Sequence record: MN218775.2
Strand: one strand, 5' to 3'
DNA: 39,253 nt
Source: Escherichia virus ECG4
Shown here: piece by piece, positions 11,411-13,105 of the stretch
Position numbering within the stretch: the first letter of the stretch is position 1
Layout: the number at the start of each line of letters is the position of its first letter
Position numbers and translations under genes: made by a program
Notes under the pieces: model-generated
Told to the model about the DNA's origin: nothing
The model's database searches: none
The model's input: the letters and a program-made list of their open reading frames with translations, nothing else

Positions 11411-13105
11411 GTGTTCTCTGACGGGCATTTGTACTGTTACGCATGTGACCCTTCAGTCGCATGGAAGAAAGGAGACATGGAGTTGACCGAGGGATACACA
11501 CCCTCAGGAGGTAGAAAGCAAGTGAGCAATCTGTTAACGTTCGGCGAGAACGCTGGACGATATGTCCCACTACCAGCCCGTAGTCTAAGCATGGAGATAT
11601 GCAAGAAGTACAGCTACTGGGTGGGTAACATGGGTGGCAAGATGGTTCAGGTCGCTGATTATTACGACAGGTCCGGGACCAAGGTAGGGCAGAAAGTCCG
11701 AGACGCTGAGAAGAACTTCACGGCTATCGGTAGCGTCAAGTCTGACATGCTGTTCGGCTCTCAGCTCTGGAACGGTGGCAAGAAGATAGTCATCACCGAG
11801 GGTGAGATAGACGCTCTGTCTGTGGCTCAGGTGCAGGACGGTAAGTATCCTGTGGTCTCTCTTCCGTTAGGCTCCAAGTCTGCGAAGAAAGCGATGGCTG
11901 CGAACCTTGAGTATCTCGACCAGTTCGAAGAGATAATCTTAATGTTCGACATGGATGAACCGGGTCGTCAGGCCGTTGAGGATGCAGCTCCAGTATTACC
12001 AGCAGGTCGGGTTAAGGTTGCGTTCATCAACGGATATAAAGACGCCAACGCTGCACTTCAGGCCAAGGACTTCAAGGCCATCACCGATGCTATCTGGAAC
12101 GCTAAACCTTTCGTCCCGGCTGGTGTAGTATCAGCGGCAAGTCTGAAGGACCGCACACGGGAGGCAATGCTCAAGGCAGAGACTGAAGGTCTCATGTTCT
12201 CGTCGTGCACAACACTCAACGCGATGACCCTAGGTGCGCGAGCTGGCGAGCTTGTCATGGTGACTTCAGGGTCAGGCATGGGTAAATCTACCTTCGTGCG
12301 TCAGCTACTATTAGAATGGGGCAGGGGCGGTAAGCGCGTTGGCATGGCTATGCTCGAAGAGGCTGTAGAGGAAACAGTTCAGGACCTTATGGGTCTGGAC
12401 AATAACATCCGTCTACGCCAGAACAAGGACTTGAAGCAAGCCATCTTAGAGGATGGACGGTTCGACGAATGGTATGACAAGCTGTTCGGAGACGATAAGT
12501 TCCACCTGTACGATTCATTCGCAGAGTCAGAGGAAGACACCTTGTTCGCCAAGTTAGCCTACATGGTGGACGGTCTCGACTGTGACGTCATACTGCTGGA
12601 CCACATCTCAATCGTTGTGTCTGGCATGGAAGATAACTCAGATGAACGTAAGACCATTGACCGCATCATGACTCGTCTCAAGAAGTTTGCGAAGACGAAG
12701 GGTGTTGTTGTCGTGGTCATATGCCACCTGAAGAACCCGGAGAAAGGTAAATCGCATGAAGAAGGACGACCTGTTTCAATCACTGACCTACGTGGTTCTG
12801 GTGCTCTCCGTCAACTGTCTGATACTATCATCGCCCTTGAGCGAAACCAGCAAGGTGATACTCCTAATATTGTTCAACTTCGTCTGCTCAAGTGTCGTTT
12901 TACGGGTGACACTGGAGTGGCAGGACACCTCGAATACAACAAGACGACCGGGTGGCTTGAACCGATTAGCTTCACTGGCAGCAGCGGAGAAGAGGATAGC
13001 GGCTCGTGGGAAGATCTCGACTTCTACTTGGGACATTTCTTACTTTACGAATTTTTTGGAGGACTTTTATTGCTAAGAAAACTTAAAGCTCGCTACCATC
13101 GGTAA
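11411..13105 (+). CDS. DNA primase/helicase (T7 gene 4 homologue), 564 aa from the first start after the in-frame stop
   Basis: Colinear with T7 gp4 (Walker [36 protein letters not shown]). The N-terminal zinc-finger codons lie upstream, separated by TAA at 11342; the C-terminus runs 26 codons past the conserved ...EDLDF end. Confidence 0.85.

Follow-up and report, generated by a model that had tools for sequence, protein, structure and literature searches.

The closest described counterpart of the protein discussed here is the primase-helicase of phage T7, gp4A (566 amino acids; PDB 6n7i, 1q57 and 1e0j), which is built of a zinc ribbon, a T7-type N-terminal fold, a TOPRIM domain and an SF4 (DnaB-like) helicase domain, in this order. 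Its polypeptide chain ends in an acidic tail, ...ESTDWSNDTDF. The terminal phenylalanine of T7 gp4 reportedly matters, according to work that Lee et al. are said to have published in J Biol Chem in 2006. The acidic C-terminal tail touches basic patches of the T7 DNA polymerase, and its removal results in a lower processivity and in a less cooperative binding to the fork (PMC8472574, PMC8835902, PMC7231222). In vitro, the loss of the tail decreases the processivity and the efficiency of synthesis without abolishing either (PMC8472574, PMC8835902).

The primase-helicase of ECG4 and its relatives

The window is the whole genome sequence of Escherichia virus ECG4 (record MN218775.2; 39,253 nt), an unclassified Kayfunavirus (K1F-like, T7-family coliphage). 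Gene 4 of ECG4 is located as in T7, flanked by the genes for lysozyme and DNA polymerase, and the domain order that it encodes is that of T7 gp4A. The homology with T7 gp4 that a preliminary description had proposed is clear: the two proteins align over T7 residues 7–561 of 566 (PDB 6n7i, E = 2e-233), and the Walker A (P-loop) sequence GSGMGKST of the ECG4 protein aligns to T7 gp4. The T7-type N-terminal α+β fold (PF21268 Helic-prim_T7_N, 107.8 bits for a cut-off of 27), the TOPRIM primase core (PF13155 Toprim_2, 47.8 bits for a cut-off of 22.1) and the SF4 helicase domain (PF03796 DnaB_C, 66.7 bits for a cut-off of 27) are all present. The zinc-ribbon motif CPDC...CYAC is also encoded, and aligns to T7 residues 7–40; PF08273 scores 17.9 bits, under its cut-off of 23, and in ECG4 the TAA at codon 6 comes between this motif and the ATG. 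The acidic tail of the ECG4 protein corresponds to that of T7 but, unlike T7 and any relative, ECG4 has TAC and 25 codons after the terminal phenylalanine, and TAA at codon 6. The features of the locus are listed in Table 1.

Table 1. Position of gene 4, of the small gene that follows it and of their lesions in the ECG4 genome.
Feature	Coordinates	Strand	Remarks
Gene 4 as delimited in relatives	11327..13027	+	1,701 nt; 566 codons and stop position; ATG at 11327
T11 run closed by an in-frame TAA (gp4 codon 6)	11332..11344	+	T run 11332–11342; TAA 11342–11344; private to ECG4
ORF as listed and annotated	11411..13105	+	564 codons; exact match to GenBank WEU75013.1 (564 aa)
Conserved terminal Asp-Phe of gp4, GAC TTC	13019..13024	+	Read directly in the ECG4 sequence
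TAC (Tyr) at the gene 4 stop position	13025..13027	+	C at 13027 private to ECG4
Spacer between gene 4 and the small gene	13028..13069	+	14 in-frame codons; holds the Shine-Dalgarno sequence GGAGGA (13058–13063)
Conserved small gene, phrog_13039, 54 aa	13070..13234	+	Same frame as gene 4; TTG start; PHROGs E = 2e-37 (LS3 copy)
TAA at small-gene codon 12, terminating the gp4 extension	13103..13105	+	Private to ECG4; TTC in 20/20 relatives
Residual 42-codon ORF (MYKWW...)	13106..13234	+	Remainder of the small gene past the nonsense codon

A megablast search with positions 12600–13400 against 50,697 phage records returns K1F-like Kayfunaviruses, the top match being Escherichia virus LS3 (MN518893.2, 98.9%). 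Version 2 of the LS3 record (MN518893.2, hereafter LS3 v2) is colinear with the ECG4 record from end to end (39,255 vs 39,253 nt, 99.19% identity), and 312 substitutions and a few indels separate the two. The 90%-identity cluster of the tailspike has members from ECG4 and LS3 only, and the LS3 record is the sole other carrier of the exact ECG4 endolysin in the contig index. We looked for an independent assembly of an ECG4-type phage, based on its exact DNA polymerase (for which there is no match on record), its exact endolysin and the pattern of its spacer, and found none beyond the LS3 record; a literature search for ECG4 or LS3 returned no paper. At gene 4, we compared ECG4 to four annotated genomes, those of LS3, LS2, P7124 and 216Ecol046PP (out of about 200 GenBank Kayfunavirus records that cover the region), and to a set of 68 IMG/VR loci encoding gp4 homologues (36–99% identity).

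The loss of the stop codon

In ECG4 the conserved ...WEDLDF is followed in frame by TAC, then by 25 more codons and by TAA at 13103–13105, which makes 26 extra codons in all; direct reading of positions 13019–13105 thus bears out what the preliminary description had said of them. Gene 4 measures 1,701 nt in LS3, LS2, P7124 and 216Ecol046PP, and since the same count from the ECG4 ATG ends at 13027, the TAC sits exactly on the stop position. The codon that matches it in the nucleotide alignment is TAA in LS3, and TAG in LS2, P7124 and 216Ecol046PP. That a terminal ...DF with a direct stop is typical of this family, as had been claimed, agrees with the IMG/VR set: the last residue is phenylalanine in 65 of the 68 loci (isoleucine in the other three), the terminal dipeptide is DF in 47, and a stop codon (TAA, TAG or TGA, all three being used) directly follows the terminal residue in all 68. 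A free acidic C-terminus with a direct stop is therefore a property of the 68 loci and of the four annotated genomes that the ECG4 protein does not have. We nevertheless classify ECG4 gene 4 as a gp4 orthologue, and put this departure down to an error of the record.

No related phage was found to share the extension, be it among the four annotated genomes, the 68 IMG/VR loci or in the protein and spacer searches. When the last 99 residues of gp4 followed by the extension were compared to 5.8 billion proteins, no match extended over the extension (the coverage was at most 83%, the gp4 part alone representing 79%). On the basis of these sequence comparisons, the extension is unique to the ECG4 record among the material searched. 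Re-sequencing was the other check put forward in the preliminary description; its nearest substitute is LS3 v2, a colinear, 99.2%-identical sibling, although a separate record, which has TAA at this site.

The body of gene 4 (11432–13015, 1,584 nt) is 100% identical in ECG4 and LS3, where the gene is annotated as LS3_23. The discrepancies between the two records in gene 4 are confined to both ends of the gene and to the flanking spacers, in patches that are variable among Kayfunaviruses.

The composition of the extension

The extension consists of the TAC codon, the 14 codons of the spacer and the first 11 codons of the small gene, which are codons 16–26 of the extension. This contribution of the N-terminus of the small gene, the second private nonsense codon that interrupts it and the in-frame TAA at codon 6 of gp4 had all escaped the preliminary description.

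The spacer of ECG4 is of a T-rich type that is common to LS3 only. The ECG4/LS3-type pattern has no match in IMG/VR and JGI metagenomes, and a 121-nt query spanning the spacer is mostly covered by LS3 alone among the 50,697 phage records. As for the start of the small gene, the codon is ATG in nine, GTG in seven, TTG in three and CGG in one (LS2) of 20 relatives; the TTG of ECG4, being also used by three of them, is a natural variant. The PHROGs search with the extension peptide returned no family, and the exact 42-residue protein encoded by the residual ORF is absent from a collection of 15 billion proteins.

In an LS3-like background, the loss of the stop alone would fuse gp4 to the full 54-residue protein and would add 69 residues. 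The observed length of 26 codons therefore needs a second private lesion, the change of TTC to TAA at 13103–13105, which also wrecks the conserved small gene. The preliminary description had stated that one substitution would explain the finding; this is right regarding the loss of the stop (TAA or TAG to TAC), but does not account for the length of the extension. In LS3 v2, codon 12 of the small gene reads TTC, but two bases close by are private to that record and are probably errors: one at 13062, within the Shine-Dalgarno sequence, and one at 13107 (ATG to AAG). The latter is 2 nt away from the TAA of ECG4, at a site that is invariant in 20 relatives; position 13062 is likewise invariant in the other relatives.

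The 5' end of gene 4

Gene 4 of ECG4 begins with ATG GCT TTT TTT TTT TAA GAA GAG GAT AGC. Where ECG4 has its run of 11 T, LS3 carries GCTTTGATTTCGGAAG (five substitutions within 8 nt) and the remaining relatives have other mixed sequences; codon 6 is GAA in LS3 and LS2, and CAA in P7124. The T11 run is the longest homopolymer across the five genomes compared, and it is found only in ECG4. The first in-frame start codon after the TAA at codon 6 is the GTG at 11411, which lies inside the zinc ribbon, past its first pair of cysteines. It is because of this TAA that the ORF, as listed and annotated, starts at GTG 11411, and the annotated primase/helicase of ECG4, WEU75013.1, is identical letter for letter to the translation from this GTG through the read-through. 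In the absence of an earlier start, no full-length primase-helicase can be made from the ECG4 sequence as written.

We considered that slippage on the T11 run could rescue codon 6, and rejected this idea on the basis of frame arithmetic: the ATG is already in frame with the body of the gene, so that changing the length of the run by multiples of three keeps the TAA, while a shift by +1 or –1 leads to stops or to the wrong frame.

The quality of the ECG4 and LS3 records

The differences between ECG4 and LS3 do not look like the product of natural divergence between phages. The transition/transversion ratio is 0.41 and A<>T or C<>G swaps make up 45% of the 312 substitutions, vs 1.04 and 19% when ECG4 is compared to P7124, and 1.19 and 15% when it is compared to 216Ecol046PP. 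The alleles are biased at the sites that differ, ECG4 being T-rich (136 T) and LS3 A-rich (139 A), and the differences are evenly distributed over the three codon positions and mostly non-synonymous. They cluster in short patches which diverge from the other Kayfunaviruses: the local divergence is 0.378 vs 0.111, and none of 10,000 random sets reached the mean of the discrepancy clusters.

The tailspike gene illustrates this pattern. Its C-terminal half (33997–35573) contains 88 nucleotide differences, nearly all of which are a pyrimidine in ECG4 and the complementary purine in LS3, and yet the ORF remains open in both records. Among the 60 codons of the tailspike that differ, 56 are non-synonymous, with systematic pairs such as TAT/TAC (Tyr) in ECG4 for AAA/AAG (Lys) in LS3, or TCA (Ser) for AGA (Arg), and also Tyr for Leu and Ser for Cys. 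Distant homologues of the tailspike agree with LS3 at 13 of the discrepant positions, with ECG4 at six and with neither at 31. A 42-residue LS3 fragment from UniRef in the tailspike cluster proved uninformative, as it comes from an out-of-frame ORF in both records.

Over the whole genome, two independent outgroups side with ECG4 at 93 of the discrepant sites and with LS3 at 57, and match neither record at 40. Each record is thus contradicted by the outgroups, ECG4 at 57 sites and LS3 at 93, which implies that there are wrong bases in both, and that neither can be used as a clean reference. The strictly private substitutions of ECG4, counted in columns where the four other genomes agree, amount to only 18 in 32,940 aligned columns, and their ratio of transitions to transversions (11:7) is unremarkable. 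Three of them (13016, 13104 and 13105) are located within 90 nt of the lost stop; together with the private changes of LS3 v2 at 13062 and 13107, they suggest that neither record has a reliable consensus in this stretch.

Four gene-damaging changes are unique to ECG4: the CTG at 5567, the TAA at codon 6 of gp4, the TAC at the stop of gp4 and the TAA that interrupts the small gene. All but the first are in gene 4 or adjoin it. Position 5567 is the start codon of the LS3_09 homologue, which is ATG in LS3, LS2, P7124 and 216Ecol046PP. Another patch is found at 6480–6514, just upstream of an ATG, where ECG4 has ATTTTCAATTATTGGAGCTTTACCCCTATG and LS3 has ATTGGCAATCAAAGGAGCTCCACACCAATG; it contains twelve differences in 35 nt, nearly all of which are T in ECG4, a T-fill pattern like that seen at the start of gene 4.

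LS3 v2 also has its own oddities. Its genes LS3_06 (2247–2447), LS3_15 (8299–8553) and LS3_26 (15468–15761) depend on start or sense codons that are private to this record: ECG4, LS2 and 216Ecol046PP agree against it at most of the positions concerned, and so does P7124 at some of them. These three annotations are probably artefacts of errors in LS3 v2.

Several simple relations between the two records can be discarded. ECG4 is not version 1 of LS3, since the LS3_09 protein (QLF86341.1) is unchanged between the LS3 versions and yet different in ECG4. Nor is ECG4 merely LS3 with errors added, considering that the outgroups side with ECG4 more often than with LS3 and that, where LS3_06, LS3_15 and LS3_26 seem to be broken, the private codons belong to LS3 v2. 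The idea that the odd bases of ECG4 are simple complements of the true base fits position 13027 (C, vs G in most relatives) and many sites of the tailspike, but it fails at 13016, 13105, 11335 and elsewhere, so that it is not a general rule. The swaps between TC and AG do not result from the synonymous recoding of serine codons (TCN/AGY), because TCA (Ser) vs AGA (Arg) and Tyr vs Lys are non-synonymous. Last, there is no lineage-wide T-bias in ECG4, LS3 and LS2, whose 813 shared derived sites look natural; the bias is limited to the alleles that are common to ECG4 and LS3 only (22 of 39) and to the differences between ECG4 and LS3.

The origin of the read-through

We believe that the read-through of gene 4 is very probably an error that arose in a noisy deposit, at the base-calling or consensus stage, and that an ORF caller has carried into the annotation. 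The TAC allele is private to ECG4 and is missing from its closest sibling and from all the relatives examined, and the record combines other implausible lesions with a spectrum of differences that is not biological. The C at 13027 would then be a wrong call, TAA or TAG having been written as TAC, and the T11-TAA at codon 6 of gp4 and the TAA at codon 12 of the small gene would be miscalls of the same kind. All of these would fall in the short patches where the ECG4/LS3 lineage departs from the other Kayfunaviruses, and such a concentration of discrepancies is what would be expected from reference-guided or poorly supported consensus calling; the consensus may thus have been called poorly in these divergent patches, either under the guidance of a reference or from noisy reads. 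The ORF caller would then have built a 564-residue protein, starting from an internal GTG and reading on past the lost stop, across the spacer and 11 codons into the small gene. The lesions are unique, the sibling has a stop codon and the spectrum is odd, all of which is read directly from the records; from this we infer a technical cause, as opposed to a mutation in the phage stock. Most likely the real ECG4 phage has a normal gene 4 ending in ...DF-stop, like all the relatives examined.

Such a situation is similar to that of stop-loss and frameshift artefacts in deposited phage genomes: the lesions of ECG4 are private, they affect both ends of an essential gene, a sibling is devoid of them, the ORF is called from an internal GTG to a downstream stop and the spectrum is non-biological. 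The errors of ECG4 are mainly substitutions (T-fill and complement swaps), unlike the homopolymer indels that are typical of long-read or pyrosequencing data. Against an artefact, it is possible that ECG4 and LS3 differ as true isolates, since they are separately named and ECG4 is not version 1 of LS3. The small number of strictly private ECG4 substitutions and their ordinary transition/transversion ratio go in the same direction, as does the fact that in several regions the outgroups resemble ECG4 more than they resemble LS3 v2; by this comparison of sequences, ECG4 is not uniformly the worse record of the two.

A genuine point mutation of the stop (TAA or TAG to TAC) in the sequenced ECG4 stock is unlikely, although it would require a single base change. 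Such a variant, either deleterious or neutral, might have arisen recently and been fixed through the bottleneck of plaque purification, its hydrophobic/basic tail of 26 residues being tolerated or only mildly harmful; the observation that removing the tail of gp4 lowers processivity and synthesis in vitro without suppressing them (PMC8472574, PMC8835902) is consistent with such tolerance, and the few private substitutions of ECG4 look natural. However, the private nonsense codon at position 6 of the same gene would remove the zinc-ribbon primase, which means that at least one lesion in this gene must be an error and raises the prior for others. In addition, the length of the extension rests on a further private double substitution in the small gene, nothing follows the terminal residue in the 68 homologues and the four annotated genomes, the sibling record has TAA, and the substitution spectrum of the ECG4 record is demonstrably artefactual. 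That the TAC is real in a viable phage, so that ECG4 replicates with a gp4 whose terminal phenylalanine is internal and followed by the 26-residue tail, seems to us highly improbable. The burial of this phenylalanine in a working helicase, as the preliminary description implied, is undercut by the nonsense at codon 6 and by the unnatural pattern of errors.

It is even harder to believe that the extension is functional and was selected, either as a C-terminus of gp4 remodelled for the coupling between helicase and polymerase, or as a partial fusion with the small protein. The open frame common to gene 4 and the small gene is all that speaks for it, whereas the extension is not conserved, belongs to no PHROGs family and is made of an untranslated spacer, which includes the Shine-Dalgarno sequence of the next gene, and of 11 codons cut by a private nonsense; moreover, it would mask the terminal phenylalanine that is kept in most homologues. 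The chances are smaller still that alternative forms of gp4 are produced by programmed recoding, by read-through at the stop of gene 4 or by transcriptional or translational slippage on T11. It is true that RNA polymerases are prone to slip on runs such as T11, and that gene 4 and the small gene are in one frame. But TAC is a sense codon, which leaves nothing to read through, and the sequence itself refutes recoding at the C-terminal site; at T11, the arithmetic given above applies, and the T run is missing in all the relatives compared. The extension is conserved in none of the relatives examined, and Rfam has no match in 12900–13400.

Consequences

A real extension would call into question the idea that the helicases of the T7 family need a free acidic tail ending in phenylalanine to hold the polymerase at the fork; with a real TAC in a viable phage, the contact of the C-terminal carboxylate and phenylalanine with the DNA polymerase would be dispensable, or replaced, in the ECG4 lineage. 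If the read-through is an error of the record, as we propose, the practical value of these observations is a warning for the curation of WEU75013.1 and of the ECG4 and LS3 records. WEU75013.1 would be an artefactual protein, truncated at its N-terminus and extended at its C-terminus, which is unfit for alignments, family models and structure predictions. Hundreds of bases are suspect in both the ECG4 and LS3 v2 records, especially in the tailspike, and they could mislead analyses of host range or receptor binding.

A hairpin downstream of the small gene

We note that a conserved hairpin with an internal loop (MFE –21.4 kcal/mol, z = –2.96) is predicted at 13234–13281, in the interval that separates the small gene from gene 5. 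It is part of the region in which the Rfam scan gave no match. The hairpin hardly varies among the five genomes, and its location resembles that of the R4.7 RNase III processing site of T7.
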